NCBI GenBank assembly: GCA_947502835.1
Contig: CANNBJ010000005.1
Span: 40,429 to 104,428, forward strand
Direction: 5' to 3'
Length of the DNA stretch: 64,000 nucleotides
Source of the DNA: Bdellovibrionales bacterium
GTDB taxonomy: Bacteria > Bdellovibrionota > UBA1018 > CAIMNF01
The first letter of the stretch is position 1. Each line of letters starts with the position of its first letter. Shown in pieces: positions 22,770-61,704 of this stretch. The position numbers were made by a program, and so were the translations under genes. The notes below the pieces were generated by a model that did not search any database, was not told where the DNA came from, and worked only from the letters and a program-made list of their open reading frames with translations.

Positions 22770-22771
22770 AT

Positions 22772-25145: not shown

Positions 25146-25172
25146 CCCCCTGATAAAGAAGAGGAATGCATT

Positions 25173-25553: not shown

Positions 25554-25583
25554 TCGGGCTTGTTCCTCTTCAACCGATTCAAT

Positions 25584-25638
25584 GGATAGGCGCAATCCGG
25601 AAAGAAGCCCGGTTTGTGCCTATCCTATTGTGTTTTTG
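25584..25638 (+). terminator. rplL–rpoB intergenic attenuator/terminator hairpin
   Basis: GGATAGGCGCAA…TTGTGCCTATCC stem with inner CCGG…CCGG, followed by TATTGTGTTTTT. Confidence 0.6.
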
Positions 25639-25846
25639 ACGATTAGAAGTTAGTTTCTGGGATTCGGATAAATCCCAAATTGCGATTCGAGCTTTGGCCA
25701 GTGCGGAATATGGCCTACCCAGATGCGGCAACCGGATGCGGCCGTGTTTCGGATGATGACCGGTGAGCGGTCTATCGAGTAGGCGAAAAAATTGTCCTGG
25801 TTGCAAACGAACAAAACAGTTTGTGTTTTTGGCTAAAGGAGAATTC

Positions 25847-29989: not shown

Positions 29990-30046
29990 GGAAATCGGCG
30001 CGGGTCCCACAGGGGACCTGCGCCAAACAGTAAAGAGGGCAAGACG

Positions 30047-34189
<4,143 letters not shown>

Positions 34190-34224
34190 TGATTCCTGAA
34201 ATGGAATCCATCTAATGTTTCACT

Positions 34225-34256
34225 CCGGGTCTGTCCGATGGGCAGGCCCGGTTTTT
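34225..34256 (+). terminator. Rho-independent terminator after rpoC
   Basis: CCGGGTCTGtccgatggGCAGGCCCGG + TTTTT. Confidence 0.7.
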
Positions 34257-34259
34257 CGT

Positions 34260-34334
34260 GCGAGCATAGCTCAGCGGTAGAGCACTACCTTCACACGGTA
34301 GGGGTCACAGGTTCAAATCCTGTTGCTCGCACCA
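34260..34334 (+). tRNA. tRNA-Val (anticodon CAC)
   Basis: Cloverleaf by eye. Anticodon stem CTACC/GGTAG, loop TTCACAC. Confidence 0.75.
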
Positions 34335-34420
34335 ATTCTCATCACAGCCTTGAAAAAGGCGTGATTCCCGGATTGGCAAAAGCCGGATTTTAGAGTATCA
34401 CTATCAAGTCATTTTCATCC

Positions 34421-34496
34421 GGGCGATTAGCTCAGTTGGTAGAGCAGGATGTTTACACCGTCAAGGTCGGGAGTTCGAGCCTCTCATCGCCCACCA
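34421..34496 (+). tRNA. tRNA-Val (anticodon TAC)
   Basis: GGGCGATTAGCTCAGTTGGTAGAGC… loop TTTACAC. 3' CCA encoded. Confidence 0.8.
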
Positions 34497-34617
34497 TCCT
34501 TCCGAATTTCCTTTTTTAGTTCATCTCGCATCGGTCTCACTCGCTCAAAGTATTCGTACATACATTTCGCTCGTTCGCCTTGCTCGATTTCCTAAAAAAG
34601 GAAATTGGGAAGGATGG
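34494..34617. repeat. 26-bp-arm imperfect inverted repeat (arms 34494-34519 and 34592-34617) flanking a 72-nt spacer
   Basis: CCATCCTTCCGAATTTCCTTTTTTAG … CTAAAAAAGGAAATTGGGAAGGATGG (1 mismatch). Arm 1 begins inside the 3' CCA of tRNA-Val. Confidence 0.7.
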
Positions 34618-34627
34618 TCGCTCGGTT

Positions 34628-35100
34628 GAGAGGCGAGAAGCGAGTGAGCGGCTGCGGACGAAGCACTGCTTCGGACGCAAGCAAATCATGCAGGATGCAT
34701 GATTGAGTGAGCGAGGTGGCTAGGCGGAGCCGAAGCGGGACGCGCAGGCGAGCGCTTAGCCGAGCCGATCGAATATCAGGCATCCTGCCTTTACACTTCC
34801 ATTCGCCATCCATGGCTGAAGTGAATGCGCGAAGGGGGCCTTTGTCTTTGCCTGCTCAAGTCAGGATCTGCGGTAGGGAATTTAGGGTGTCGATGAACCG
34901 AGTCTTTATGGGGGAGGGGGATTCTGGTGGGCGATGAGAGGCGAGAAGTGAATTTTACGGCCGCGGTGAGCATGAGTAAAAGTCATGTTCACCACGGCAA
35001 GTTCGTGCAGGATGCACGACTTAGTAAAAGAGGTGGCTAGGCGGAGCGGGACGCGGAGGCGAGCGCTTAGCCGAGCCTCATGCATCCATGGCTGAAGTGT
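34628..35100. repeat. Two tandem copies (34628-34824; 34935-35100) of a GC-rich structured non-coding element, period ~307 bp
   Basis: Shared blocks: GAGAGGCGAGAAG[C/T]GA; GCAGGATGCA…AGGTGGCTAGGCGGAGC; GGGACGCG[C/G]AGGCGAGCGCTTAGCCGAGCC; CATCCATGGCTGAAGTG. Each copy has nested inverted repeats GGATGCA…TGCATCC and GGCTAGGC…GCTTAGCC. No ORF. Confidence 0.7.
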
Positions 35101-35276
35101 GTGCTGCCCGGGGCAGGGCGGAGCACTTCACCTCGTTAGTGCATCAGTGTTTTGACTAGAATCGGAATGCCTTGGCTATTTTATCTTCCATTCAGCTACT
35201 TGGAGGGTGATCCATTACCTCATCATTTAAGGCCTCACCAGGTTAGGCCGCGTGTCCAAAGCGACACAGCTTTTCT

Positions 35277-35304
35277 TTGAAGCAGCATGACATTAAACTA
35301 TAAT
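35277..35304 (+). promoter_or_regulatory. Sigma70-like promoter (TTGAAG-16-TATAAT) overlapping the first ATGs of the 949-aa ORF
   Basis: -35 TTGAAG at 35277-35282, 16-nt spacer, -10 TATAAT at 35299-35304. Implies a TSS near 35311 and translation from the downstream ATG at 35354 (MIRILPC…). Confidence 0.45.
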
Positions 35305-45415: not shown

Positions 45416-47388
45416 GTCAGTTACTTGTTCTGCTCGCGATTTTACCCGTAGCACTCGCGCAAACCCAGATGGTTTTTCCGCCCACCCCGAATGGACCGGA
45501 GGGTGAAAATCCGGTCATGATGAATCCAAACCCGGGGGCTGTGCCTGGTGTGGGGCAACCGTCAGCACAATCGTCCGCCCAGTTACTCGGCAGTCTGCCC
45601 AACCAATGTCCCTATCTTGAAAAATCAGCTGATGCCAAGAAACTTTTAAACGAGGTAAGTAAAGACATTGCATCCGCGATCGCAGAGCTGAGTAAACAGG
45701 GGGATCGATGCGCGCTTCAGGGGAGCAATCTCATCGGGCAGATGCAAAGTTACAATGAAGCCATCAATCAACTTGCTCAGCAGCGGATTCCGGATCAGAG
45801 GGCCATGAGCAATCTGATGGTGGGGAGCGAGCCATTTCCCTGTGGCCCGGACAATCAGGAGTTCACATCGTTTTTAAGCCAGTATGCCCGAGGGCGTGTG
45901 GTCGAAAAGATGGCCCTCGCATCGCCAGAGTCAGCATTGATCGGAGCCTACGGTAGCCATATCGAGGGTACAATCGATTCTTGCATCACAACCGCCCAAA
46001 GGAATTCAAGCTCCAGGGCCGCAAGTGAGCTCGGGATCACTCAATGCACCTTCTCTTCGCTGTTCGGAGACAGAACAGGCGCTCAATCGAGCCCTGGCTC
46101 CTGGGCAGCTAGTGCCTGGAACAATGACTGCGGCACTGGAAGTACCAGTGCAGTGAATTCAGCGCGCAGAGGAATCGAAAGCAAGCAAGTCGAACTCGAA
46201 ACATCACGAAGGAATTTTGAAAACGCTCTCAACTCCGTGACGAATCAATTCAGCACTCTTTCTGGTAGCATCAGTGCCATCCCGACTCAAAGGTGTGCCG
46301 CAGTGAAACAACTCCTTTTGGGGGCAACTCAGGGAGGCCTTGGGGTCACAGCAGCACTCACAGGTCCTTGGGGCGCGATTGGATCGGGCTTTCTATCGCA
46401 GATTCTATCCGGTTCCATCCAGGCTTTGGGAACCAATCAGAACAGGATCAATCGACTGCAGCAAACCGAGGAGGCCATAAAAAACAGCAATCGCACCCTG
46501 TTTCAAAACTTCAGTTGTCACATATTCAAGACAAACCAGCTGAATTGCGAGCTCCTCACCCGATCCCAGATGGAGGAAATGAATCCGGGACAAGCGCAAT
46601 TCATCTCCTGTCAAAGTGATTCGCAGGTTCGATCCAACCTGCTCATGACCGGAAAACTCAGGAATGACCTCCGTGAATTCTCAGCAAAAAACCAGTCTCA
46701 AGCGCCTCAGGCTCTTCAATTTTCCTTGGCCCAAGTTCCATCTCAGGTATCCCCCTCGGAGGAACAGACTGACTATGTCTTTGACAAATTCTTCTCAACC
46801 AAAGATGATTTCGGAGTGATTTTGCCGAGTGGAGAACACATATCCACCTATGACTATCTTTACAAGGATCCTAATGGCTTGATTTCAAGCGCAATAAAGG
46901 GCTATTCCGATCTTAAGCCGGGTGACGATCGCAAGAACCTCGCGAATCACAATGTCATAAAACAATCCCAACTGCTCAAGAGCCAACTGGATGAGTTCAG
47001 ACAAAGAATGACCATCTTCAGAAGGACGAATTCCTTCGATCCTGTCGGGAAGGACGGAAAGAATCTCGTAAGCGGGATTCTCGAATCCGTCAAAGGCGGG
47101 GAGTACCTGGACGCGGTCGGTTTCTATCTCAAGGATCGGGCAAGTACCCCTGATTCCGGAGACAACAACAACTTTGGCATCACCAGAGCACTCGCCGATG
47201 AAATGAGCACCACCCTTGAAAACCGGCTTTTTGAACAATTGGGACCTGGAATTCCGAAGAAAAAAGCGGAATCCAACAATCTTCGAACTACGATCACGGA
47301 CATCTATGACAATTTTCTTGGTCCCAAATCGATCATCAAGGACCGGTATGTCAATGGTCACCGGGACGAGGCCTGGCGCCAGATTTAA
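45412..47388 (+). CDS. Hypothetical secreted Cys-rich protein (ends at in-frame TAA; same frame continues to 47781)
   Basis: Signal peptide MSQLLVLLAILPVALAQTQ. ≥12 Cys in paired arrangement. Q/N/S-rich. Confidence 0.6.
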   Translation: MSQLLVLLAILPVALAQTQMVFPPTPNGPEGENPVMMNPNPGAVPGVGQPSAQSSAQLLGSLPNQCPYLEKSADAKKLLNEVSKDIASAIAELSKQGDRCALQGSNLIGQMQSYNEAINQLAQQRIPDQRAMSNLMVGSEPFPCGPDNQEFTSFLSQYARGRVVEKMALASPESALIGAYGSHIEGTIDSCITTAQRNSSSRAASELGITQCTFSSLFGDRTGAQSSPGSWAASAWNNDCGTGSTSAVNSARRGIESKQVELETSRRNFENALNSVTNQFSTLSGSISAIPTQRCAAVKQLLLGATQGGLGVTAALTGPWGAIGSGFLSQILSGSIQALGTNQNRINRLQQTEEAIKNSNRTLFQNFSCHIFKTNQLNCELLTRSQMEEMNPGQAQFISCQSDSQVRSNLLMTGKLRNDLREFSAKNQSQAPQALQFSLAQVPSQVSPSEEQTDYVFDKFFSTKDDFGVILPSGEHISTYDYLYKDPNGLISSAIKGYSDLKPGDDRKNLANHNVIKQSQLLKSQLDEFRQRMTIFRRTNSFDPVGKDGKNLVSGILESVKGGEYLDAVGFYLKDRASTPDSGDNNNFGITRALADEMSTTLENRLFEQLGPGIPKKKAESNNLRTTITDIYDNFLGPKSIIKDRYVNGHRDEAWRQI

Positions 47389-47781
47389 GAAGAATTCAAA
47401 AACGGGGTCGGAATCAAGGATGGGAAAGAGACGATCAAGAACAAAGAGCTGTTTTCAACAAATGTGGTCTATGCCGCAATCACGCACTGCTCCCTCAATT
47501 ACCCCTTTGCACTGAATGCGGAGGGAACGAAGCTGGATGAAGGATATATGGAACAGTGCGGATTCTTGAAGGCATGCAAGGGTGAAAATAATACCATTGG
47601 CTGGCCTATAGATCTGGCGGGGCCCAATCAAGCAAAAGTAAAATCCCACTCGGTTGCTGAATTTGGAATGTGTTCCATGGTGAGCAACTTCAAGTCGATC
47701 GAGGCTCGTCTTGAAAAAGAGTTCAAGAAAAGTGGAACGATTTGCGGAAAATCCGTGTTCGAGATTGAGTCCTTTCGATAG
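47389..47781 (+). pseudogene. In-frame continuation of the 45412 gene after a single TAA stop (possible pseudogene, sequencing error or readthrough)
   Basis: Same frame as the upstream 658-aa ORF. No ATG until 47464. Same Cys-rich composition (ITHCSLNYP…EQCGFLKACKG…GMCSM…TICGKS). Confidence 0.4.
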
Positions 47782-47818
47782 AGGGGCATTCAGGTTGCCG
47801 TACGATTGGAGGCCCCCG

Positions 47819-48154
47819 TCAAAGGTTCTCGCACCACCGGAAGAGGTCTTCAATGAAGGGATTTCGCTCGAAACACGCAGCGGTCTTTCCCCAAAGGAGA
47901 ACCCTTTCACATCCGGAAACGCCGCCTGGGTTCGCCGAAACGGGCGATTCCAGGCTCTCAAGCCCTCGCGGTTTGATCAGATGCCACGGAGTTTCCGGAG
48001 TACGACACCGAAAACCATCCTTCTCCTTTCTCAGGGAGATTTGTCGAACCTTTTCGTGGGAATTCTTGGACTCGATGCGGACCACGACCTCGTTTGCTGG
48101 ACCTGCAAAGGAAGGAGTTGGGGTAGCAAGGAGTATCCAGAAAACCAGGATCAT
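47819..48154 (-). CDS. Hypothetical 111-aa secreted protein (downstream member of the coupled pair)
   Basis: Signal peptide MILVFWILLATPTPSFAGPA. 4 Cys. ATGA start/stop overlap with the upstream gene. Confidence 0.4.
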   Translation of the reverse strand: MILVFWILLATPTPSFAGPANEVVVRIESKNSHEKVRQISLRKEKDGFRCRTPETPWHLIKPRGLESLESPVSANPGGVSGCERVLLWGKTAACFERNPFIEDLFRWCENL

Positions 48155-48555
48155 AAATTACACTCCTTGGTGCCCGGTTCCGGATCGCATCCGAGGATTT
48201 CGCAGATTTCCCGCGTGAGGAGCTCCCGCCTGCGTGCAGGGTTCAAGGAGTGCGGTTCCGGATCGTACATTTTCTGAACCATTGCCTCATCCGGATAGCG
48301 TTCATCATTTCCCGGAGGATCGCAGAATGTCGACAAATTATGGTGGAACAGGCTCGTCCGTGACTCTTCTGGCTCTGCGCGGAGAATCCGAGCCATTACT
48401 TTCGAGGAGATCATATCGGCAAATCGCTCTTCGGTGTCTTCAGCAAGACCTCTGACCACTAACCCTGAGTCGGAAGAATGGATCCCTTGCATCGGGATCG
48501 TCGATTCCAGAATTTCTTGCTGGACTTCTCTCGATTTATCAATTGCAAGTCGCAT
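48151..48555 (-). CDS. Hypothetical 134-aa protein (upstream member of an ATGA-coupled pair)
   Basis: ORF with no family assignment. Its TGA overlaps the ATG of the downstream gene (ATGA at 48151-48154). The plus-strand alternative ORFs are R/S/P-rich antisense-like. Confidence 0.35.
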   Translation of the reverse strand: MRLAIDKSREVQQEILESTIPMQGIHSSDSGLVVRGLAEDTEERFADMISSKVMARILRAEPEESRTSLFHHNLSTFCDPPGNDERYPDEAMVQKMYDPEPHSLNPARRRELLTREICEILGCDPEPGTKECNL

Positions 48556-48796
48556 CTTATTCGAAGGATCGGTTTCGCTGCTGCACTGGTACTCGGCAAT
48601 GAAAAAAGAGTAAGCTGCTGAATCGAGAGTTTTGTTTTCAGCGACGAAGGGGTAGCCCTCGCAAGGAGTCAGGAAGGTCGCTGAAGGTTCCCTTCAACAA
48701 CTAACGGAGCTTTTGTTCGCGACTTGGCTTCTGTGAGCACTACTCCAGGGTCGAATCTGGATATCTGGGGCTAGGCGGGTTACTTGGATGAGCAGT

Positions 48797-48821
48797 TCAA
48801 AACCAAGGAGTTATGCCTTGG
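48797..48821 (-). terminator. Rho-independent terminator for the 48858-49487 gene (minus strand)
   Basis: Minus strand reads CCAAGGcataactCCTTGG followed by TTTTG, 37 bp after the stop. Confidence 0.6.
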
Positions 48822-48857
48822 TACTCCTGCAGACTTCCGTGTCATCTCATCACCCTG

Positions 48858-49487
48858 CTATTCCCCGACAGCTCTTCTAGAAGTCCGCGCATGGGCGCCG
48901 AGATTATACTGAAGCACTTGCGGACTGAGTTCCTCCGGTTGTGAGATCAAGCCGCCAAAGCTTGCCCAGCCGATTCCACACTCAAGGGTCGCGCTGGCAA
49001 GGACTTGCCCTTTGGGTGAGTAAATAGAACCTTTCCAGGTAGCAGCAAACACCTTTTGTTCGATAAGGTCAAAGCGATCCAAAGAATCAAGAGATGCCTT
49101 GATCCGGGATCCCGATTCCAGGGTGATTTTTCCTGCTGAACTGCGAAGTATTGCGAGGCAAGCCGTTTTCCCGCCAGCGAGGGTGGCATCGCCCGCAATT
49201 TCGGTTCCATCATTGAAGGTGATGGAAACAGGCGTGATCGAAGTGCTCCCAAGGAGACCCCTTGATGAAGATGCAAAATGGTATCCCGACTGAAGGGTGA
49301 CTTCGATCGAATTTGCGGAAGAGAGCTTTTCAAAAAGTTGCGAGATTTTTTCTGCGCGAGCCTCTTCTGCCATTTGCTCCAAGGATGCGGCAAGAAGCTC
49401 GTCTTCACGCACTTCAAGACCAGATTGTGCGTGTGCCGGATCAGATCCAAAAACAAGTGCGATCAAAATGGGGATTAGGCTCTTCAT
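48858..49487 (-). CDS. Hypothetical secreted protein
   Basis: Signal peptide MKSLIPILIALVFGSDPAHA. S/G/T-rich, β-rich composition. Followed by a terminator. Confidence 0.55.
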   Translation of the reverse strand: MKSLIPILIALVFGSDPAHAQSGLEVREDELLAASLEQMAEEARAEKISQLFEKLSSANSIEVTLQSGYHFASSSRGLLGSTSITPVSITFNDGTEIAGDATLAGGKTACLAILRSSAGKITLESGSRIKASLDSLDRFDLIEQKVFAATWKGSIYSPKGQVLASATLECGIGWASFGGLISQPEELSPQVLQYNLGAHARTSRRAVGE

Positions 49488-49638
49488 TGCGCGCTGAGAG
49501 TAGCGGACAGAATGGGAGAGGTCAATGGTGGACTCAAAAGCTTAAGAATTAAACTGTCTCGATTTATTTCCTTGGAAATGGAGAACAGTGTTGAATCGAA
49601 AGGGAAGACTCGAGCTCGACTGCCCGCGCTCACTCGAC

Positions 49639-52600
49639 TTAGAGACCCTGTACCGAGTCAATGATCATGTGATCCACTCCGGTTTGGTTGCTGTCGTTGT
49701 TTCCGAAGCAATAGGGAGTTCCTGTGGAGCTGATGGCACAGAAGGTGTGCTCGGTCGGTGCCTGCGAAATTGAAGTAATATCGGTCATGCCGGGGACTTC
49801 GTAGGATCGCCGGTAGAGCGAGGTGTTGATATTGCCAAGGCCGCGCTGTCCGAAAGAATTCTGTCCCCAGCAAACAAGCTGTGTCGTTCCAGTTGCTTTG
49901 CGTATTCCGCAGGATGAGTTTTGGGTCGAACTAATCGCGGTGATTCGAGTAAGAACCGCACCGCCCTCCTCACCGGATACGACAGAATCAGGGGTTCTTT
50001 GGGAATTGATAGAAACACCGTTTCCGAGCATTCCGTTTGCACCAGCTCCCCAACATTTGACGGTGCTATTATTCAAGAGTGCGCAGGTGAATTTGTTCCC
50101 GGCCGAAATTGCAATCACACCTGAAATATCAGCTTGTTGCGGAATGTTTCCGAATACACCACTCCCACCGGTATCGTTGCCGTATTGACCATTGGTATTG
50201 TCCCCCCAGCATCGCACCGTGCGATCTTGAAGAAGTGCGCATGCGTGATCATAGCCAACGGAAATTTGGGTTGCAGTTGTGATCCCAGAGACTTGTACAG
50301 GCACATTGGATTGGACTCCGGGGCCAGGTATGGCAGGTGCATTACCCAGCTGGCCGCGGGTGTTCATACCCCAACACCACACAGTTTTATCCGAAAGGAG
50401 AGCGCAAGAGTAGTAGTTTCCGGACCCGACTTGATTCGCGTTTGAGATTCCGGAGACTGGTTGTGGAATAAGGGCACCGGAAGTCGAATTATTTCCAATT
50501 GTCCCGAACTGTCCATGTCCCCAACACTTGATGGTCGAATTGCCAAGGAGCGCGCAATAATGAGAGTTTCCCGCGGCAATTGAGGTTGCGGTCAAGCCGG
50601 TTCCAAGATTCACAGTGGTTGCGCTTTTGTAGCCGTTGTTTTGGCTTCCATTCCCGAGTTGACCATTGCTTCCAGCGCCAAAGCATCTGACCTGGCCCGA
50701 AGTGGTGAGTGCGCAGGCGGATGAACCTCCGGATGAAACCTGCCTTAATGGTCCAAGACTGCTAACAAGTGTACCCGTGCTCGGGATCAGAACACTTGGA
50801 TATCCACGACCTGTGCGATAACTGGTGGCAAGACCCCAGCATTTCACGGGAGATTCTGACGACGAGGTCAGGGCACAGACATGATTTTCTCCCATCGAAA
50901 TTTGAAGTGCGTTGCTGATGCCTGCCACGGAAACTGGGCTCAAGCGGGTTGTTTCAGTCCCGTCGCCCAGAATTCCATAACGATTGAGCCCCCAGCACTT
51001 TACTCCACCCGCGCCAGAAAGAACGGCGCAAAAGGAACTTCCTCTTGAGGCGGCGACTACAGAGGTCGCAGAAGTGATACCGTTTGCTGTTGGGTAGGGT
51101 TGCTGTGTGGTAGACCCGTTTCCGATTTGCCCGGACCCGCCTGTCCCCCAACATTTGATTACCCCTCCCATGCGGACGCAGGCGCTCGAGTCGCTCAATG
51201 CAATTGCGGATGCTCCAGTCAGGACGTTTCCAGCAGAGGCGAGCACGTCGACGGCCACTGAAGAAGGTACTCCTGTGTTATTTCCAAGTTGCTTCGTAAA
51301 TGTGCCGTTGGCTCCCCAGCATCTGACCCCGCCATTTGTCCGAACGGCGCAAGAAAACCCGTCTCCTCCAGCAAGTGCACCAGAGGATGGCTGGGCATCG
51401 GTGATTCCCGAAATAGGGAGAGCATAGGTGCTAGGAGAGGTGGTTCCGTTTACGGGGGCGGTTTCGCTTCCCTGGCCCCAGCAATAGACTGATCCTGAAT
51501 TCAGGGTCGCACAAGTGTGATTCGCTCCAGCCGCAATGACCGCGACGTTCGTGAGTGGGGCGCCTGGGCTCGTCTCGATCTGAACTGGGGATAAGGATTT
51601 AACTGTTGAGGTCCCCCCTGCCTGGAGGTTATCGTTGATACCCCAACATTTCACCGTTTGGTCCGATAAAAGGGCGCACGCGTGGAGATAGCCCATGACG
51701 ACTGCGGTTGCGCTATTGATGCCGGACACCGCTCCCGAATTGGGTTGATCCGTGGTGACTCCGCTTCCATTCACGCCATTACCACCCTGGCCCCAGCACC
51801 GAATGGTGCCATCAGAAATCAGGACACAGGAATTATTTGCGCCTAGAGTGGAACTGAGTGCAGAAACTGATCCACTAAAGGCAGAGAGACTCAAGGCCAC
51901 AGAGATGCTCGATTGGGTGCAGGCTCGGTTCAGGGTGCCGTCAATCCGACTCGCCACAGTTGGCTTTGCCACCACTGTCACGGTGCAGGCTGCTCCTTTG
52001 CTGAGGTTTGAGGTGCCGCAGGTGTCACTGACAATCATGAAGTCGGAGGAATTACTCAGTGTCGGAGCACTGCAACCCGTAAGGGTTCCGAATCCGGAAT
52101 TGGTCAAGATGATCTCTTTTTTCGCTGACGCACTTCCGACCCTGACGTTGGCAAAGTCCACTGTAGAATCGGCATATGAGGTAAGAATGGGTGCCGAAGC
52201 GACTCCTGCAACCTCGATCCCATTCGTGGTGGTGGATTGGGTTCGGGTCTCACCGAAGAGGTTCGTACAAGAGCGCGAAAGAGTTGTGGTCTGGCGACCG
52301 GAAGCGGTCGGAGATGCGGCCACTTGGACGACACAGCTTGCTCCAGCTGCGAGATTTGCGGTGCCACAAGTGTCGGACGTGATTCTGAAATGAGTTGAGG
52401 GGCTTAGGGTGGGGGCACTGCAGCCACTGGCCGCACCATTTCCGGAATTGGTGATTGTGAAGGAAAGACCTCCTCCGGTCTCTCCCACTGTGACCGACCC
52501 ATAGGGGCGTGCGACAGGGTCAAAGGTGAGATTCGGAAGGGAAATCGAAACTGTGGCGGTGCCTTCCTGAGAGTTCAGATTATTCGAAAAAACCGAGTAT

Positions 52601-55600
52601 TTGAAGCTACCGCTTGTGGTTCCCAACGCGGATGCGGTCAGGCCCACTTGGCAAACTCCATTGGAGCATTCGCAAGGCAAGGAAATGGTGACATTCGAGA
52701 GATCGGTAATCGAACAGGAGCTGATCGTATCTCCGTCCGGATCAGTCGCGGAGGGAAGTGTGAAGAGCGCCTGGATCGCAGTAACCGGAGTCGTGGGTGC
52801 CCAAGCAAGATTCGATAAAACCGGAGGAGAATTGGAGAGGTTCAAGGTTCCGATATTTGAGGTGAGTCCATCGGCTGTCGTTACGGTGTAGGTGAATGTT
52901 GCGGAGTTTAGCCCGTTGCTGCCCATAATTCCCACCCTGCACACTCCAGACGTGCAGGAACAAGGTGAGGAGACGACGAGACCGCCCGAAGAGATCACGC
53001 TGCAGGCCGTGGCGAGATCGCCCTCACTATCTGTGTAGGGAAGGGTAAGAGTCATTGCGGCTTGGGAGAGGCCTTGCGAAACCGTACTGGCAACCGGAGC
53101 GCGGCTGTTCACAACGCTGATTCCGCTTTGACAGGTGGTGATGGATCCGAGACTTGCCTTGATCGAGCGGATCGTGGTGTTTTGGATTGAAAGCCCGCTA
53201 AAAGTAGCGATCCCTAAGCTAAGTGGTTTGATCAGCGTGCCGCCCAGGCCTGCGTTGATCACTGAGCCGCTGCAATTTGAAGCGTTATATGCGGTCAGAC
53301 TGATCTGGGAGGAGGAGTCCAGAGAGGAGATGTTTCCTAATGAATCCAGCGCAGTCACCACGGGTTGGGTGGAAAAGCTCAAACTGTAGGCGGAAAGGGT
53401 CAGGGGTGCAGGTGGAGTGCTGAATGCGATTGAAGCGGGTGAGCCCGGGCCCACACTGAAACTCGGAAAGACATAATCTGTAAAGGGAATATACAAGTCA
53501 ATATTCCAGGCATTGATTCCCAAGGCTAAGGGGGTATACCGAACGGTATAAAGGCCAGGAGCAGGGTTTGCGACTTGGCCAAAAGTACCCCCGCCCTCGA
53601 CAGTATAAAAGTGAGCCGAGGTCGGAAGGCCAACGGTAGAATAATTTCCAAAATGATCCTCTAAACTCAATTGGATTTCGAGGAGAAAGGCCTCGCCGAC
53701 TCCGCCATGATTGGAAGCGAGCACGTTTACAGAGGTGCTTGAGGTCCTTACCGGAGTCAAACGATTATCAACGGAGCCCGGGGTGACGGGTATCGCGGGT
53801 GAGCAATCTCCGGTGAGGTTCCCGGAACTCACCTTCAGATAAAGCGGGCCTGTTCTGTATTGTTGCCATCCGGGCTCTGATCGACGAAAAGTCAGACTTG
53901 ATACCGTTGCCGTACCACTGGTCATGCTGAGCGAATTGCACGAAGCTTCGTTGCAGAGGAGACTGGATAGAAAATATCTATTGGTGAAAGCGGGAGATGC
54001 GACCGTACATCCGGCATCATCGTACAAGGCGAGTTGCGCTGTGCCTGAAGTGGATACTTTATTGTGATAGGCATCATGGATCTCAAAGGAAAGTCCGGAG
54101 GCAATCGGAGTACCGGCCGTGGCCGTACTCGGCACTTGCGAAAAAGTAACCTGAGTTGCAACACCTTGCAGCGGTCCCGGAGCAACATTGAAGCCACTGG
54201 TGCACGAGGTGATACTGCCAAAGATCGCTTTGATGGACTTCATCGAAGTGCTGAGGGCGCTCACGGACGAAAAACTTGCAACCCCATTGACGAGGGATTT
54301 GCTTACGTTCATCGGGGTTGAGCCCCCGCCTAAGCCAAATTTGAGCTCTGATCCCTCGCAATTGAGATCGGAATAAGCCGCAATTCGTACTGTGCCACTT
54401 GCGCTGGCAAGAAGATTGTCATAGGGATCCCGGACCGAAATTTGAGGCTGGCTTGTAAAAACCATGCCTGCAGTGAGGGAGGCGGGGGCTGGGTCAAGGT
54501 CCCAAGTGAGTCGAGACGCGGCGCCTGCGCTAACCGTTACACTTGCGCTCGCAGAGGTGATGCCGGTGCTTGCTGCGGTGATGGTGATTGATCCAGCGGT
54601 CTTGAGAGTGACGGAAAAAGATCCAGTGCCTGATGTCAGAGATGAAGCTGAGGGAAGGATTGCTTGAGTATCGCTTGAGGTGAAAGAGACAGGGTTTGCA
54701 AAGGATGTAGCCGTGTTTCCGTTTCCATCAAGAGCAGTGATTGTGACATCGAAGGCCGTTCCGGCAGGAGTGGATGCAGGAACAGAGGAGAAGCTCAGGC
54801 GAGTGGCGGCCCCTGGAATCACGGTGACGGAGTCATTGGCCAAGACAAGTGAGCCAGAGATGGAAGCGCCAAGAATGACTGAGCCTGCGAGAACCCCCGT
54901 GAAACTTGAGGTGTAGAAGCCCGATCCCGAGGAGTCAATCCTATCAAAACTTCCGGTCCCGCCAACCGAACTTGAAGTGAAGAGGATTGAGGAGTCAGAG
55001 GGGAGGCCTGAGGGATTCGAGTTCCCGAACTGGTCTTTGGCAGTGAGGGAGATGGAGATCGAATCGCCTGAGGCGACAGAAGCCGCTGATGCGGTGACAG
55101 AGGACTCGGCGAGGGAGTAGGCGCCCGGGTTGATCGAGAAGGCGCGGGAACAGGCAGAGATCAAGCCCGCACTTGTCGCTCCCAAAAAGAGCGACTGACT
55201 TGCAAGGTTCACCCTGACATTTTCAAACTGGAGCTCACCGGAAGCAGAATTTCCGCTCAAGCTCCCCGAGAGGGAATCACTTCGATTCGGAGTGGTTGCA
55301 ACCGGCACTTGGCAGTCGGAATCCGAAAAGAGTGAAAGAACGATGGGAATGGAATTTGCGGTGGTGAGAGCATCTGTTTCCGAAAGGATCTGAACTTTGG
55401 GTTGTACCGAGAGCAATGCGCCGGCCTGAAGGCCGGTCGTAGCGATGGGCTGGACGGCAAAGATCAGGTGATGAGGCACCACTGAAGGGCTTGCTGAAAG
55501 AGTAATGCTGACCGGGCTTGAGTCGAGAGATCCGTGATCATTCACTGCGGTCACTTTGAACTCATAGGTCGTATTGTTTTGGAGACCGCTCACCACATAA

Positions 55601-55875
55601 GGCGAAGCGGCCCGGTCGCTTGCGAGAGTGAAGTTTGAAGCGCCCGAGATCCGATAGTAGACCGAGTAGGCGGAAGCATTCTTGGAGGAGCTCCATTGCA
55701 GGGTGGCCTCGAGGATTCCCGGAGAGGCCGACAGGATTTCAAATCGATTGGGCGAAATGAGGAAGGGTGTGTGATTCAGGTTGAAGGTTGAGCCGGACGA
55801 GCCCAAAAGGGGATTGCCGGTGCAAGCCCCTAACATGGAGATCAAGAACAACGATTGAATCCACTGAAATTTCAT
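49639..55875 (-). CDS. Giant (2078 aa) surface lipoprotein: N-terminal FN3, multiple Ig-like/choice-of-anchor-D domains, C-terminal RCC1/BLIP-II β-propeller repeats
   Basis: Lipoprotein signal MKFQWIQSLFLISMLGAC. FN3-like YSVYYRISGASNFT…YEFKVTAVN. ITNSGNGAASGCSAPTLS…TCGT choice-of-anchor-D units. ≥7 RCC1-type repeats (YHACALLSDQTVKCWG, GANHTCATLNSGSVYCWG…). Confidence 0.8.
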   Translation of the reverse strand: MKFQWIQSLFLISMLGACTGNPLLGSSGSTFNLNHTPFLISPNRFEILSASPGILEATLQWSSSKNASAYSVYYRISGASNFTLASDRAASPYVVSGLQNNTTYEFKVTAVNDHGSLDSSPVSITLSASPSVVPHHLIFAVQPIATTGLQAGALLSVQPKVQILSETDALTTANSIPIVLSLFSDSDCQVPVATTPNRSDSLSGSLSGNSASGELQFENVRVNLASQSLFLGATSAGLISACSRAFSINPGAYSLAESSVTASAASVASGDSISISLTAKDQFGNSNPSGLPSDSSILFTSSSVGGTGSFDRIDSSGSGFYTSSFTGVLAGSVILGASISGSLVLANDSVTVIPGAATRLSFSSVPASTPAGTAFDVTITALDGNGNTATSFANPVSFTSSDTQAILPSASSLTSGTGSFSVTLKTAGSITITAASTGITSASASVTVSAGAASRLTWDLDPAPASLTAGMVFTSQPQISVRDPYDNLLASASGTVRIAAYSDLNCEGSELKFGLGGGSTPMNVSKSLVNGVASFSSVSALSTSMKSIKAIFGSITSCTSGFNVAPGPLQGVATQVTFSQVPSTATAGTPIASGLSFEIHDAYHNKVSTSGTAQLALYDDAGCTVASPAFTNRYFLSSLLCNEASCNSLSMTSGTATVSSLTFRRSEPGWQQYRTGPLYLKVSSGNLTGDCSPAIPVTPGSVDNRLTPVRTSSTSVNVLASNHGGVGEAFLLEIQLSLEDHFGNYSTVGLPTSAHFYTVEGGGTFGQVANPAPGLYTVRYTPLALGINAWNIDLYIPFTDYVFPSFSVGPGSPASIAFSTPPAPLTLSAYSLSFSTQPVVTALDSLGNISSLDSSSQISLTAYNASNCSGSVINAGLGGTLIKPLSLGIATFSGLSIQNTTIRSIKASLGSITTCQSGISVVNSRAPVASTVSQGLSQAAMTLTLPYTDSEGDLATACSVISSGGLVVSSPCSCTSGVCRVGIMGSNGLNSATFTYTVTTADGLTSNIGTLNLSNSPPVLSNLAWAPTTPVTAIQALFTLPSATDPDGDTISSCSITDLSNVTISLPCECSNGVCQVGLTASALGTTSGSFKYSVFSNNLNSQEGTATVSISLPNLTFDPVARPYGSVTVGETGGGLSFTITNSGNGAASGCSAPTLSPSTHFRITSDTCGTANLAAGASCVVQVAASPTASGRQTTTLSRSCTNLFGETRTQSTTTNGIEVAGVASAPILTSYADSTVDFANVRVGSASAKKEIILTNSGFGTLTGCSAPTLSNSSDFMIVSDTCGTSNLSKGAACTVTVVAKPTVASRIDGTLNRACTQSSISVALSLSAFSGSVSALSSTLGANNSCVLISDGTIRCWGQGGNGVNGSGVTTDQPNSGAVSGINSATAVVMGYLHACALLSDQTVKCWGINDNLQAGGTSTVKSLSPVQIETSPGAPLTNVAVIAAGANHTCATLNSGSVYCWGQGSETAPVNGTTSPSTYALPISGITDAQPSSGALAGGDGFSCAVRTNGGVRCWGANGTFTKQLGNNTGVPSSVAVDVLASAGNVLTGASAIALSDSSACVRMGGVIKCWGTGGSGQIGNGSTTQQPYPTANGITSATSVVAASRGSSFCAVLSGAGGVKCWGLNRYGILGDGTETTRLSPVSVAGISNALQISMGENHVCALTSSSESPVKCWGLATSYRTGRGYPSVLIPSTGTLVSSLGPLRQVSSGGSSACALTTSGQVRCFGAGSNGQLGNGSQNNGYKSATTVNLGTGLTATSIAAGNSHYCALLGNSTIKCWGHGQFGTIGNNSTSGALIPQPVSGISNANQVGSGNYYSCALLSDKTVWCWGMNTRGQLGNAPAIPGPGVQSNVPVQVSGITTATQISVGYDHACALLQDRTVRCWGDNTNGQYGNDTGGSGVFGNIPQQADISGVIAISAGNKFTCALLNNSTVKCWGAGANGMLGNGVSINSQRTPDSVVSGEEGGAVLTRITAISSTQNSSCGIRKATGTTQLVCWGQNSFGQRGLGNINTSLYRRSYEVPGMTDITSISQAPTEHTFCAISSTGTPYCFGNNDSNQTGVDHMIIDSVQGL

Positions 55876-56057: not shown

Positions 56058-57782
56058 TTAAGGGCCTTGGTTCGCCTCGAGCAGGACCAAAGTCACATCA
56101 TCGGGAGGCGTGGAGCCGAAAAATTCCCGCGCCTGCTCCATCAGGTTTTCAAGAATTTGTTCGGGGGCTATTCCCGATTTTACCCACGAATCAATGAGAG
56201 GGAGGATTTCCTTCTTGTTCAAAGCCTTCTGGTCCGTCGGACGATGGTCAAAGAGACCATCACTGTAGAGCACCAATCTTGATCCCGAAGGGAAGGGCTT
56301 GGTAAAGATGGTGGCGATTTCGACATCCTCGGTTCCCATGGGGTGGGAGGGTGCGGATTTCAGGCTTTCGGGTTCGGCGGATGCTCCTTCCCAGAAGAAA
56401 GGCCTCGGGTGTGAATAGTTCTGATAGCTCATGACACCCGAATCAAGGTCGATGATTCCGATCATGCAACTGAACCATGTGGCTCCTTTTGCAGATTTTG
56501 TCACCGCGGAGTTGAGCGTGCTGCCGAGATGTTGGAGGGATTCCTCGGTCGAGCTCAAGTGAATCGAGTGCGATTCGACACTTTCCATCAATGCAGTGAA
56601 GGCTCCGAATACCGATGCGGTAATCAAGGCGGCGGGAACTCCGTGGCCTGTGACATCACCGAAAACGAAATAAATCCGGCTTCCGATTTTCCGGAACTGC
56701 CAGAGATCGCCTCCGCACTCTGACGCGCTTTTGCTGACTCCCTTGATTTTGATCCTTTGGTCCTGAAAAGAGCCGCTTGGAAAGAACTGCTTTTGCACGA
56801 ATTCAGCAGCCTCCAACTCCTTCTCCATCCTTGCCTTGGTGGCTGTTTCGCTGATCAACATCTTGATCTTGCGACTCATATCAAGAAAGGTATTGGAGAG
56901 TACCGAGATCTCATCCCGGCTGGCTTGGGTTTCATCAAGGGTTATGTCGAGATTTCCCTTTGAAATTTCACGGGAAGCAAGAGTCAGGTCATCAATTCTC
57001 CGTGTAATCGCTTTCAGCAGAATGAGTGTGATCCCGAGGGCAAAGAACAGCAGGGCAAGGCCAAGAATAATCGATCTTTCAATCAAGGATCGTGCAGACT
57101 GGAATGCGACATCCTTTGAAACCATGCTCAAAACCAGAATATTCCCTCCTAGAATCGCGCGATACCCGAGGAGATAGGACCGTTGGTTGATGGTGATTTC
57201 CTGGGTGCCCTGTTCAAAACCGGGATTCACAGTGGCTGCAATCAGGTTGCAGGAGCCGTCTTTTTTGAAAGTTTCCCGTTCGATCCCGAATAAAACCCGC
57301 TTCTTGGTCGGGGAGGTAACACAGAGGTTGAAGTCCTGGGCGAGTTGTTCCTCATTCAGTTGCAAGCGGTTCGATGTGAAACTGAACACTCTCCCGTCCG
57401 AAAGGTGTAAAACCACATCGACGCCGCTCTGATCACTGGAGCGGATGAGATCAATGTATTGGGGTTCGGGGCTCGTTCTTTTCAGCTCCCGGGATTCGAT
57501 TCCAAACAGATTCTTAAGCGCGAGCAATTGAGTAGCGATATCCTGATTCCCGCCCTCTTCGGCTCGAACCGCAAGTCTTGATACCGGCTCAAGGAGCAAA
57601 TTGAGATTCTTTGCCACCGAATCGGCCTGTGAGGCAGCGTAATCAAAAATGTAGGAAGTCTTATCCCGAATGATGAGATTGCTCCCGAGAATGACCAGGG
57701 CTGATCCGCTGATCAGAAGGGCCATGAGGATCAAAATCGTGATCTTCGTTCGAATCGAAAGGTCGAATCGCATAAGGTGCAT
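56058..57782 (-). CDS. Membrane sensor PP2C-family Ser/Thr phosphatase (periplasmic sensor + HAMP + SpoIIE/RsbU-like)
   Basis: N-terminal TM, ~200-aa periplasmic region, second TM. HAMP (ITRRIDDLTLASREISKGNLDITLD). PP2C motifs GDLWQF…GDVTGHGVPAALITASV…VLYSDGLFD. Confidence 0.75.
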   Translation of the reverse strand: MHLMRFDLSIRTKITILILMALLISGSALVILGSNLIIRDKTSYIFDYAASQADSVAKNLNLLLEPVSRLAVRAEEGGNQDIATQLLALKNLFGIESRELKRTSPEPQYIDLIRSSDQSGVDVVLHLSDGRVFSFTSNRLQLNEEQLAQDFNLCVTSPTKKRVLFGIERETFKKDGSCNLIAATVNPGFEQGTQEITINQRSYLLGYRAILGGNILVLSMVSKDVAFQSARSLIERSIILGLALLFFALGITLILLKAITRRIDDLTLASREISKGNLDITLDETQASRDEISVLSNTFLDMSRKIKMLISETATKARMEKELEAAEFVQKQFFPSGSFQDQRIKIKGVSKSASECGGDLWQFRKIGSRIYFVFGDVTGHGVPAALITASVFGAFTALMESVESHSIHLSSTEESLQHLGSTLNSAVTKSAKGATWFSCMIGIIDLDSGVMSYQNYSHPRPFFWEGASAEPESLKSAPSHPMGTEDVEIATIFTKPFPSGSRLVLYSDGLFDHRPTDQKALNKKEILPLIDSWVKSGIAPEQILENLMEQAREFFGSTPPDDVTLVLLEANQGP

Positions 57783-57901
57783 CTTCGTATCGGTAAAGGC
57801 CTTTGAAATCTAAAGTGAATCCCAAAAAGCCGGGGTCCTTGACCAAGGCGAGGCCGATTAAAGCTCTGTCGCGATTCTGACGAAAAGGGAGACGGGAGGA
57901 A

Positions 57902-59713
57902 ATGTCCTTAAGTCAAATGATAAAGCCGGATGGATCGATCATCACGTCGAAGGAAGGCCTTTTGGGCATCCTGTGCCTTTTGTTGGGTGCAGGGTTCTCT
58001 TATGCGTTCTTCTTGAACGGATTTGCATCCTCTGAAACCCGGGCGCGAGTCAGATCGAGTATCGGAAGCCTCGAGAGTATGACTGGCGGGGTTCGATACC
58101 GGTACACAAGCTCGGCCCTTTGGCAGGACATTCCTTCAACCGCGAAAAAAGAGGTGGGGATTGGGGATGCGGTTTTCACCTCAAACAGCGCTTCTGCGAA
58201 AATCGGGATGGAGGATGGAATTGAAGTGCTCATTCAGCCTTCCTCCATGGTGGTTTTTTCCCCTCCGAAAAAGATCATGGGTTCGATCCCGGCTGAGAGG
58301 GCTGTCATTCAGGTGAAAAAGGGGCAAGTCAAACTGAGTGTAAAAGCCCTGGCAGCGACACCGATCCTCCTTGAACTGAATGGAAAGACCTATACGATTC
58401 CGAAGGATAGCCTTTCCTCGAGTGAGGGAAAATCCGTGGTGGTGTCCCTGAACGAGACCAATCAAAAGCCCATGATTACCCTTGAGTCCACGGATCCAGT
58501 CCGGGGCGCCCCATCCCCTGCGATCGAGATTCCCTTTGAAGAGGTCAAGGTTGAGGAAGTGAAAGTCGAGGAGGCCACGTCCGCGAAAGATCCATTGGAG
58601 TCTCAGGCCCGGATCGCAACCGTGCCTGCATCGAATCCGGTGGTGGAGCTTGAGAAAAATGCACCCATTCGATTTACCGCGACTGAAATCAAGAAGGTGG
58701 AAGTACCCCTTCCCCGCTCACCCAAAGCTGAAATTGAGGTGAGGCCAACGGTGGAGCCGCCACCTGATGTTGCGAAGGCCCCCGAGCCAGCTCCCATTCG
58801 AATCACGATGAGTGAGCTGAAGGACGTCAGTGTCGAGGCTGCGCCACGGATCTCAGAGGCCAAAGCAGAAGAGTTGATGCCAGTTCCCGAGCCCAAGCGG
58901 GCGCCATTGCCTGTGGCACGAAAAATCGCGTCAGAAGCACCTGCTGAATCCAAATCCGATCCCGGAACTGAGTCGAAGGTTGACCCGTCGCCTGCCCCGC
59001 CCAAAGTGGATTCAGCAATCCTGGGCGAAGAGGAGTCCAAGAGCCTGATTCAGGTAAATCTTGGTTCGTCCTTTTTGAAGTATGAGGGCAAGGACACCAC
59101 GAACGGCAGCACCGGAGTGCTCGGTTCAAGCTCTTCGATTCGATTGGGTATGGATTGGATTGCGAAGATCGGTGAAATGAGCCAAATCCGCCTTGGCATG
59201 AATCTGCAAAAGGTGGAGATCTCGGATTTGAGCTCATTCTCCTTGCAAGGAACCGCTCAGTCCCTGGTGAAACTTCATGCGGCGTATGAGACACGGATTC
59301 TAGACCAGTTCGACCTCGTCATCGAGGCAGGACAGAGGGACCATTTGCTCTATCGGGCAATTTCGGTTTCGTCGATCAAGATCGATAAGGCGCCCGCGCT
59401 CTATGGTGAGATTGGGATTCGATCCCGTGTGATTTCGAATTCCTACCTGAATGGAGATCTTCGCGGGGGATTCCGGATTCATGCTCCGATCAAAATTGAT
59501 TTCTACCAGTCCAGGATGGGTACCGGGTTCACTGGCGCGTTCACACTCTCTCAGGAACTGAAAGCCATGACTCTGTTTGCGGAGCCTTTTTATCAGAGGG
59601 ATGCAATTCCGTTTCAGTCTCTCGATTATACGGAGACAGAACTCGGCTTGGTCTTTGGAGTAAACTTCAGATTGGGCTCATTTCTCCCAAATCCACGAAA
59701 AGGGAGCCGGTAA
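57902..59713 (+). CDS. Hypothetical single-pass membrane protein with FecR-like β-domain, Pro/Glu-rich linker and C-terminal β-rich domain
   Basis: TM LLGILCLLLGAGFSYAFFL. FecR-like region (GDAVFTSNSASAKIGMEDGIEVLIQPSSMVVF…KGQVKLSV). PEPxP-rich linker (aa ~200-370). Confidence 0.5.
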   Translation: MSLSQMIKPDGSIITSKEGLLGILCLLLGAGFSYAFFLNGFASSETRARVRSSIGSLESMTGGVRYRYTSSALWQDIPSTAKKEVGIGDAVFTSNSASAKIGMEDGIEVLIQPSSMVVFSPPKKIMGSIPAERAVIQVKKGQVKLSVKALAATPILLELNGKTYTIPKDSLSSSEGKSVVVSLNETNQKPMITLESTDPVRGAPSPAIEIPFEEVKVEEVKVEEATSAKDPLESQARIATVPASNPVVELEKNAPIRFTATEIKKVEVPLPRSPKAEIEVRPTVEPPPDVAKAPEPAPIRITMSELKDVSVEAAPRISEAKAEELMPVPEPKRAPLPVARKIASEAPAESKSDPGTESKVDPSPAPPKVDSAILGEEESKSLIQVNLGSSFLKYEGKDTTNGSTGVLGSSSSIRLGMDWIAKIGEMSQIRLGMNLQKVEISDLSSFSLQGTAQSLVKLHAAYETRILDQFDLVIEAGQRDHLLYRAISVSSIKIDKAPALYGEIGIRSRVISNSYLNGDLRGGFRIHAPIKIDFYQSRMGTGFTGAFTLSQELKAMTLFAEPFYQRDAIPFQSLDYTETELGLVFGVNFRLGSFLPNPRKGSR

Positions 59714-59876
59714 GGCGAACCCAGGAGTTGACCTTCAAGGCGAGAGAATCAACACAGGAGCATCGATCCGACGAGTATTCACTCAGATGGCTCTCGTCCC
59801 AATTCAATGATTCTCAGTGGAACCCATGGGCTTTTGTGCTGGTACGGTGGTCATCATGGAAACAATTCAAGGAACC

Positions 59877-60350
59877 TCAGCATGGACTGGTGTCATCAGC
59901 CGAGCAATAGAGAAGCAACTCAACAGGAGTTCCTGCCTCGCCATTGATGATCGGGGTTACGAGATAGTAGGTACCGCTTCCGGGACCATGTGCGCCGCCA
60001 CAGAAATTGGTACCAGAATCCCTGAAGTCACTGACTTCACAGGTGGAGGGATCGATGCTTGGGGGAATGTAGGGAGTTGGACCTCGAGAATAGGCAATCG
60101 TGCAGTTGGTGAGAGTTCCCCCCGTAACACTCGGGACCCCCGAGGTGGCGTAAGTATAGCCGTTTGACATGTTATAGCTCACGAAATTGATGGAATTTGA
60201 AACATAGGTGACGGTAGCTGTTTGCGAGGAGTTTCCGTCATTCGAAGCCGAACCCTCACCTCCCTGATTCAACATTCCGCAAGAGCTCGTAAAGGGGCCC
60301 GCAGCCATAAGACAAAGTAAAATTAATTTTCTCGAATCAAGAATGCCCAT
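59877..60350 (-). CDS. Hypothetical lipoprotein
   Basis: MGILDSRKLILLCLMAAGPFTSSC lipoprotein signal. G/S/T-rich, 6 Cys. Confidence 0.5.
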   Translation of the reverse strand: MGILDSRKLILLCLMAAGPFTSSCGMLNQGGEGSASNDGNSSQTATVTYVSNSINFVSYNMSNGYTYATSGVPSVTGGTLTNCTIAYSRGPTPYIPPSIDPSTCEVSDFRDSGTNFCGGAHGPGSGTYYLVTPIINGEAGTPVELLLYCSADDTSPC

Positions 60351-60544
60351 GGCTATAGAGTCGCATGAAATCGAAAATTAACAATGTGTCGTGCCTTACC
60401 CGGATTGTGTGGAAAGACAATTTGGCAATTCCTTCGGATACTTGAACAAGAGTCCGAGACCCGGCTTGGGTGAGGTTTGATCCGCACCGGGAATGCAACT
60501 CTTCATTTTTGACATGCCGCGAATACGGTGCTAAACCCCTTCGC

Positions 60545-61249: not shown

Positions 61250-61256
61250 AGTCTGA

Positions 61257-61676: not shown

Positions 61677-61704
61677 CGCTTGCCCTCCATGGTAGCATGC
61701 CTTT

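Follow-up and report, generated by a model that had tools for sequence, protein, structure and literature searches.

Our analysis of a 64-kb stretch of DNA (the window, to which all coordinates refer unless a contig is named) from an uncultured Bdellovibrionota-type (Bdellovibrio-like) bacterium concerns the region that follows rpoC and a pair of tRNA-Val genes. An earlier note on this DNA had described positions 34494-55875 as a tRNA-Val-adjacent accessory island made almost entirely of secreted or anchored proteins. The plasticity at the tRNA 3' end holds up, the single island does not: among close strains, presence/absence variation is found at 34497-38459 and 48695-49624 only. We therefore favour, with moderate confidence, a region of two layers, namely a turnover slot at the 3' end of tRNA-Val(TAC) and a species-fixed neighbourhood of exported proteins. 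The first layer (34497-38459) would be an insertion or recombination slot that mobile elements enter and in which they then decay, leaving different remains in each strain. In the strain studied here, these remains would be nested palindromes with inverted copies of the tRNA end, a low-GC gene for a 949-aa protein and the stub of an ORF6N anti-repressor gene. The second layer (38.5 to ~63.7 kb) would be species-fixed chromosome rich in envelope and exported proteins between tRNA-Val and a DUF2237 gene, a mosaic of a vertically inherited Bdellovibrionota trio (p185-p458-p408), a small variable patch and several decayed genes.

Within the species, the window was compared with two Logan contigs found via an identical RDD-thioredoxin fusion protein (L081 and L082, 95.6-96.7% identical to the window) and with two contigs from members of the RpoC cluster, defined at 90% identity (L165, GCA_027483485.1, and L166, GCA_027488645.1; 98.2-98.5% identical). 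The L081 contig is SRR35819065_615864. Members of this cluster include metagenome-assembled genomes (MAGs) deposited at NCBI as ‘Bdellovibrionales bacterium’. At the genus level we used L001-L003, L164 (GCA_018266375.1), L167 (JGI 3300076274) and L168, and L169 from a related genus; across rpoBC, the DNA of L164, L167 and L168 is 77-79% identical to the window. The closest RpoC matches from species-representative genomes belong to MAGs with the labels Proteobacteria, Bdellovibrionales and Oligoflexia; over the last 350 residues, the identities are 85%, 78% and 73%. When metagenomes were scanned with the C-terminus of RpoC, nothing above 70% identity came up, so that the scan was of no use for synteny, and exact-protein look-ups with the 949-aa protein, RpoC, the YceI-like protein and p240 gave no match.

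The left edge of the slot is sharply defined. The conserved block tRNA-tuf-secE-nusG-rplKAJL-rpoBC (rpoB, 25763-29989; rpoC, 30047-34189) ends with rpoC at 34189 and is followed, as the earlier note had it, by two tRNA-Val genes. These lie on the plus strand behind a terminator-like hairpin of the same strand (34225-34251; 12-bp stem with 9 G-C pairs, then a T run) and are tRNA-Val(CAC) at 34260-34334 (ARAGORN; 73.3 bits with the Rfam tRNA model) and tRNA-Val(TAC) at 34421-34496 (ARAGORN and Rfam), whose last base forms the edge of the variable DNA. In L165, an unbroken alignment over 20048-34496 (14,450 bp, 98.45% identity) stops at exactly this base and restarts at 38400 with 97.3%. The contig of L166 (98.2% identical) ends exactly on the last base of tRNA-Val(TAC), and that of L169 ends 2 nt past its tRNA-Val. 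In L081, the equivalent of 34975 is joined straight to 38459; because 34976-38458 are missing, this strain has neither the 949-aa gene nor the ORF6N stub. Since the content is unlike in each strain examined, 34497-38459 represents a hypervariable slot, and the 3' end of tRNA-Val(TAC) is a real plasticity point.

The cargo itself differs accordingly between the strains. The window carries the palindromes, the 949-aa gene and the ORF6N stub, while L165 differs from it over 34497 to ~38399 except that fragments of the repeat units and, from the 949-aa gene, a 197-bp stub are retained. Instead, the L165 slot (14782-18195 of that contig) encodes a 377-aa multi-pass membrane protein, a 160-aa secreted protein, a Doc/Fic toxin (Pfam 3e-14, PHROG 3.7e-27) with no obvious Phd partner and two small Cys-rich secreted open reading frames (ORFs) of 85 and 88 aa. 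The ORF6N remnant proposed earlier proved to be a stub of an ORF6N/anti-repressor gene (38235-38468, minus strand). It scores 27.4 bits against a cut-off of 27.8 for the Pfam model PF10543, and since no more than a third of the domain is matched (profile positions 2-28 of 86), the fragment is a genuine stub. A PHROG anti-repressor profile matches with E = 0.005, and the ORF6N-like part falls in the window-specific segment 38157-38399.

These observations also bear on the reading that there is no island at all, in which ordinary chromosome lies at a rearrangement breakpoint, the strain differences are deletions and local recombination, and the adjacency of the tRNA is incidental. Such a reading would fit the L081 breakpoint, which lies within a hairpin of a repeat unit (unit B, below) with no target-site duplication seen. 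It would also fit the last 63 codons of the 949-aa gene kept in L165 at 98% nucleotide identity; because L165 retains this stub, the gene predates the split of these strains. Moreover, gene order erodes fast in the phylum, and each relative has different genes after tRNA-Val. However, incidental adjacency does not sit well with an identity break on the exact last tRNA base, with contigs of two other assemblies that stop at, or up to 2 nt from, the tRNA 3' end, with a Doc toxin and an anti-repressor stub in the slot, or with the clear compositional outliers described below, so that we consider this explanation unlikely.

Further evidence comes from other genera. L164, L167 and L168 keep rpoC and tRNA-Val and then carry completely different genes, with rpsB-tsf-pyrH 6-8 kb further on in L164 and L168. 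A contig from ERZ1426847, whose RpoC is identical to that of L168, has a phage-like element of at least 9.4 kb directly after rpoC (genes 5970-15054), which encodes MethyltransfD12, HTH regulators, DUF7687, Peptidase_M78 and a tyrosine integrase (Phage_integrase); in L168, Bax1-I stands at this place and the element is absent. The presence of this integrase-bearing element directly after rpoC indicates that the site is used by integrating elements in the group, a point that again speaks against a purely incidental role of the tRNA. Beside tRNA-Val in L001, L002 and L164 we found no integrases. The closest relative, L001, has the same tRNA-Val pair, and L002 and L003 have the TAC gene only. In L164, a 69-aa ORF and DUF2237 lie between tRNA-Val(CAC) and tRNA-Val(TAC) (14192-15078), and hence the spacer between the tRNA genes is variable as well.

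The DNA directly behind tRNA-Val(TAC) contains the one genuinely odd feature of the region: inverted rather than direct copies of the tRNA end within strain-specific palindromes. The 26-bp inverted repeat first noted at the tRNA CCA end is present and longer than described. Palindrome 1 (34493-34618) has arms of 38 nt (34493-34530 and 34581-34618) that are 84% complementary, and its left arm starts in the CCA end. Its predicted fold reaches -49.7 kcal/mol (z = -7.9), and none of 200 shuffled sequences was as stable. The structured repeats behind it, earlier taken to be tandem, are real as repeats and dispersed in their arrangement: Tandem Repeats Finder reported no arrays, and there are two units of ~180-220 nt, A (34606-34830) and B (34918-35140), which start ~311-317 nt apart and share blocks of 78-92% identity. 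One such block, GGCGAGCGCTTAGCCGAGCC, occurs only twice in the 64 kb, in units A and B, and the window contains no further copy of the units themselves. Each unit is headed by an inverted copy of the tRNA-Val 3' end, a degenerate one in unit A (34612-34639) and a better one from 34925 onward in unit B. The latter (34925-34947, minus strand) matches the 3' end of tRNA-Val(TAC) exactly over 18 nt (34925-34942; 0.07 chance matches expected) and at 91% over 23 nt.

The same inverted tRNA-end copy is found in L165 (14660-14677), which lacks palindrome 1 and has a different palindrome at the same place (14433-14509 with 14563-14677). This palindrome also starts in the tRNA end, and its other arm closes with the inverted copy. 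The head of unit A together with 34627-34689 is 97% identical to L165 14670-14732, and L001, L167 and L168 have a plain terminator hairpin after tRNA-Val in place of the palindromes. We rejected a tRNA pseudogene as the nature of the inverted copy, as neither ARAGORN nor Rfam detects one; with gathering and with relaxed thresholds, Rfam finds nothing except the tRNAs in the repeat region. The statement that a second copy of the tRNA 3' end could not be found is correct for a direct copy, of which there is none in the 64 kb even when three mismatches over 18 or 32 nt are allowed, and overlooked the inverted one. A direct attachment (att) repeat of the tRNA end was accordingly rejected as well. 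Neither the repeat-unit head nor the tRNA end has an exact match in IMG/VR.

In this strain, the slot carries the 949-aa ORF at 35303-38152 (plus strand; 46.6% GC), already called toxin-like in the earlier note, whose product we regard as a modular toxin-like protein. A sigma-70-like promoter (35277-35304; TTGAAG, 16-nt spacer, TATAAT; 10 of 12 matches) overlaps the first two ATGs, and for this reason the real start is probably ATG 35354 (Met18), which yields a signal-like N-terminus; the protein is most likely Sec-exported. It would consist of an N-terminal body of ~650 aa, which is conserved and includes a hydrophobic, glycine-rich segment, followed by a C-terminal module of ~150 aa that can be exchanged. 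The family is extremely rare, with three relatives among 5.8 billion proteins, the 949-aa protein itself counted as one. Residues 47-712 are 50% identical to P0003, and the last ~240 residues of the two are unrelated, as is the genomic context of the P0003 gene. A word-based homolog search with the C-terminus gave no match, while HMMER, run exhaustively with the last 250 residues, retrieved two proteins only: P0002 (82% identity) and P0023, which is 311 aa long, has another N-terminus and shows 36% identity over the last 135 aa. In plasmid and phage collections, no match to the 949-aa protein was found.

The C-terminal module (37700-38152, plus strand) may be an EndoU/BECR-type RNase. It has a below-cut-off match to Pfam EndoU_bacteria (PF14436; E = 0.02, 15.7 bits) that spans profile positions 5-128 of 129, and H12, H29, T90 and S143 are invariant in the alignment of the family (A1), which with three sequences has little power. 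This H, H, T, S set fits the published Tox-EndoU signature ‘H, H, [SNT], [SNT]’ (PMC3482391) and is counted in favour of an EndoU-type module. In the N-terminal 700 aa, Pfam, NCBIfam and PHROG showed no domain, and no recognised secretion or trafficking domain is among their matches. A PDB sequence search with the whole protein found nothing, and a profile of A1 retrieved only a VirB9 chain with E = 1.

Taken as a whole, the protein is laid out like a polymorphic toxin (Zhang et al., 2012, PMC3482391; e.g., Neisseria MafB islands, PMC4287609, and CdiA-CT toxins), and from this layout we infer a toxin activity. Shared features are the large size and predicted export, the conserved N-terminal body and exchangeable C-terminal module, the recurrence of this module behind an unrelated N-terminus (P0023), a C-terminal stub left in another strain (L165), the position in a variable islet and the resemblance of the H, H, T, S residues to Tox-EndoU. 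In contrast to these systems, there is no adjacent immunity gene and no trafficking domain of the T5SS, T6SS or T7SS (type V, VI or VII secretion system), RHS or MafB-N type, the toxin domain stays under the Pfam threshold, and the family is extremely rare. A bolder interpretation would be that the 949-aa protein is the founding member of a new family of modular toxins, Sec-dependent and without immunity genes, that Bdellovibrio-like bacteria direct against prey, and that the palindromes are a functional hairpin-type attachment or processing structure rather than scars, either a folded single-strand att site for a tRNA-Val-targeting element or a 3' trailer controlling tRNA maturation; to these two ideas jointly we give only a slim chance.

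Downstream of the slot the picture changes. Apart from 48695-49624, the segment from 38.5 to 55.9 kb is 95.6-97.3% identical in L081, L082 and L165, and we do not regard it as one recently acquired island. This species-conserved block begins with the gene for a YceI-like exported protein (38484-39152, minus strand; Pfam YceI 3.8e-9), which is 91-93% identical in L081 and L165. The p185-p458-p408 module follows (39587-42757, plus strand) and encodes two signal-bearing proteins with C-terminal anchors and a HExxH...E protease-like protein, p408 (41531-42757, plus strand). Full-length homologs of p408 number more than 412 in MAGs of Bdellovibrionales and Bacteriovoracaceae (40-98% identity), and an alignment of 13 sequences reaching down to 39% identity (A2) shows H267, E268, H271 and E288 without exception. 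Based on these residues, p408 is predicted to be a gluzincin-like zinc protease; its single Pfam match, DUF2268 with E = 0.004, is below the cut-off. The family as such is large, Bdellovibrionota-wide and without a Pfam model; its proteins of ~405-415 aa share an invariant HExxH with a Glu 20 residues further on, two invariant Cys and Gly-Phe at the C-terminus.

In L170, which encodes a p408 homolog of 55% identity, homologs of p185, p458 and p408 also stand together, between dnaX-recR-subtilase and mltG-rho-prfA-murA and with no tRNA-Val nearby. In the window and in L170, the two contexts seen, p408 is preceded by a p458-like gene that it overlaps by 14 nt. In addition, a p408 homolog at 86% identity suggests that a sister species may keep the gene within 27 kb of rpoC. 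Judged by these homologs, the trio appears to be a phylum-shared module in a housekeeping context and not an acquired one. The remaining genes of the second layer may be inherited vertically, too.

These data have to be weighed against a larger and older island, in which a single site-specific integration at the tRNA would have brought in the whole 29 kb from tRNA-Val(TAC) to DUF2237 (34497-63711), whose integrase and att repeat would since have disappeared and whose composition would have ameliorated, with the first 4 kb as later secondary insertions. The DUF2237 gene (63712-64000, plus strand, running past the window end; Pfam 7e-42) shares 77-79% amino-acid identity with its homologs in L001, L164 and L167 and has the same orientation in all of them. 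It is located 4-5 kb after tRNA-Val(TAC) in L001 and L167 and between the tRNA-Val genes in L164, hence within ~5 kb of tRNA-Val in these relatives, in comparison to a gap of 29.2 kb in the window. Nothing else between the two is common to the relatives: for the 21 window proteins downstream of the tRNA, the only counterparts within 10 kb of rpoC in L001-L003, L164, L167 and L168 are DUF2237 and an unrelated RDD domain (L002). The order of the downstream genes thus differs between relatives as expected for an island, DUF2237 excepted, and within the species 38.5-55.9 kb is otherwise fixed, which is not. Two side observations concern this gene. A PALP (pyridoxal-phosphate enzyme) gene follows DUF2237 in L001 (15254-16684) and L167 (19457-22064), forming a small conserved backbone, and the TTG-extended N-terminus of the photolyase ORF on the minus strand (62373-63884) is mere antisense of DUF2237. 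A plus-strand ORF at 63537-63887 was rejected as the DUF2237 gene for being in the wrong frame; the real start is 63712.

Composition points in both directions. The GC content at third codon positions (GC3) averages 0.57 in the 38.5-63.7 kb block and 0.635 in 15 upstream genes. This difference (Mann-Whitney p = 0.0005) agrees with a large ameliorated island, and yet the GC3 of the block does not differ from that of the upstream translation and transcription genes (p = 0.42). The only clear outliers are the 949-aa gene (GC3 0.475) and p209 (0.478), both of which lie in strain-variable pieces; all other genes between 38.5 and 63.7 kb range from 0.52 to 0.61 and overlap the translation genes, with most upstream genes at 0.60-0.71. 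In the tetranucleotide profile the slot is most deviant (correlation 0.70-0.72), and 34-40 kb as well as the repeat-rich gene of the 2078-aa lipoprotein stand out. The strong enrichment of exported proteins in the block would also suit a single acquisition. Against it stand the trio with the same 14-nt overlap in the housekeeping context of L170 and the spread of p408 across Bdellovibrionales and Bacteriovoracaceae, the photolyase, DUF2071 and SpoIIE phosphatase genes that share the block, and the failure to find either an integrase or a direct repeat. A single ancient integration of this size is therefore improbable in our view.

The right-hand limit formerly set at 55875 could not be upheld. 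There is no compositional boundary at this position, as the GC3 of 38.5-55.9 kb and that of the genes past 55875 do not differ (Mann-Whitney p = 0.53), and the run of exported or anchored proteins continues to 61.2 kb. Export and anchoring were judged by a crude heuristic of N-terminal hydrophobicity and lipobox. With it, the claim of about a dozen signal-peptide proteins is borne out, since 12 of the 14 ORFs between 34494 and 55875 have exported or anchored N-termini and both exceptions are gene stubs. The lineage-specific continuation beyond 55875 (56058-63713; Pfam and the same heuristic) encodes a HAMP-SpoIIE phosphatase, p603 (membrane anchor), p157 (lipoprotein-like), p259 (signal-bearing), p139 (membrane), DUF2071 and a photolyase/cryptochrome.

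This run raises the question of a common function. From YceI through the 2078-aa lipoprotein and beyond, the genes could form one co-functional secreted arsenal, a locus for predation or host interaction. About 16 of the 18 consecutive ORFs between 35.3 and 61.2 kb have signal-, lipobox- or anchor-like N-termini, in comparison to about 6 of 24 upstream; two HExxH proteins, a thiol-redox fusion and a giant adhesin-like lipoprotein are among them, and Bdellovibrionota include predators. Nevertheless, the genes fall into at least six transcription units and lie on either strand, and elsewhere the trio alone is known to move as a group, unaccompanied by the other genes. Moreover, three genes are decayed in this strain, a Pfam scan of the ORFs of the region found no secretion-system genes, and we obtained no sign that the organism is predatory. 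We regard a joint function of the whole run as very doubtful.

The other genes of the species-fixed layer illustrate its mosaic nature. The RDD-thioredoxin fusion announced in the earlier note (42913-43974, plus strand) is matched by Pfam RDD (1.4e-15) and weakly by Thioredoxin_2 (4.2e-4, below cut-off) and is 100% identical in L081 and L082. It is followed by p240 (minus strand) and p174 (plus strand), both signal-bearing by the heuristic (44009-45415), which have no Pfam or NCBIfam match and are conserved in L081 and L082. The p658 gene (45412-47781, plus strand) is interrupted by a stop at 47386-47388. In L081 and L082, the protein has 789 aa with a Gln at the position of the stop, the DNA alignment contains no indel, and the remainder persists in the window as ORF 47464-47781; a nonsense mutation or a sequencing error accounts for the stop. 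With 10 Cys (1.5%), p658 is a weak case for the Cys-rich protein that had been listed here.

Next on the minus strand are p111, which is signal-bearing, and p134 (47819-48555). The latter (48151-48555, minus strand) is the 3' quarter of a secreted 611-aa HExxH protein (motif HELAH) that is intact in L081 (9871-11706); it was left as a stub because the p209 segment replaced the 5' three quarters of the gene. This segment, the second variable patch (48695-49624), contains p209 (48858-49487, minus strand), and L081 has an unrelated 1.66 kb instead. That p209 is a diverged allele of the 611-aa protein was rejected, as the two show no similarity. The 2078-aa protein (49639-55875, minus strand) at the end of the segment agrees with its earlier description as a lipoprotein: it carries a lipobox-like MLGAC at residues 14-18, fn3, Ig-like and RCC1-propeller repeats (Pfam RCC1-like, 3.9e-92) and is 97% identical in L081. 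It remains a putative lipoprotein on this basis.

Several points weigh against our preferred reading of a turnover slot beside a species-fixed neighbourhood. According to Pfam and NCBIfam, no ORF between 34.5 and 64 kb has an integrase or transposase domain, and with the direct att repeat missing as well, an integrase-mediated origin of the cargo of this strain is suggested by analogy to the integrase-bearing element of a relative. The inverted tRNA-end copies are not a product of simple integration. The L081 form, whose breakpoint cuts the hairpin of unit B, could be a deletion and not an empty site. With respect to the 949-aa protein, the EndoU_bacteria score lies below the Pfam gathering threshold of 25.3, and the domain is not detected in P0002 or P0023 scanned alone. 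For the candidate module, no PDB match was obtained by sequence, nor by structure with models of poor quality. An immunity gene is absent after the 949-aa gene, where 38152-38459 contains no co-directional ORF, as well as beside P0003, whose next gene is on the opposite strand. For the second layer, the exported proteins were called with the crude N-terminal heuristic, and since only one gene family was traced outside the species, its other genes could still be acquired.

In its general features, the slot resembles the tRNA-associated islets or integration hotspots of tyrosine-integrase elements: the variable DNA starts from the exact tRNA 3' end, the cargo differs among conspecific strains, has a low GC3 and comprises toxin-antitoxin-type and phage-regulator remnants, and a relative carries an integrase-bearing element after rpoC. 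In contrast to such islets, the slot has no integrase and no direct tRNA-end repeat, contains inverted copies in nested palindromes and measures only ~4 kb. The second layer in turn is comparable to other lineage-specific exported-protein neighbourhoods of Bdellovibrionota with their consecutive hypothetical signal-bearing proteins, HExxH proteases, a giant repeat lipoprotein and at least one phylum-shared module. It differs in its position, as it occupies the space between tRNA-Val and DUF2237, neighbouring genes in related genera.

In consequence, what we describe is ordinary genome plasticity on a smaller scale than proposed, and the current understanding of genome plasticity is unchanged. 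The vague 21-kb ‘island’ is now replaced by a precise map with a 4-kb hypervariable slot, a 0.9-kb variable patch and a species-fixed neighbourhood. Besides, a rare modular toxin-like protein family has been identified, and the phylum-wide three-gene envelope module p185-p458-p408 is open to study in cultured relatives of Bdellovibrio.

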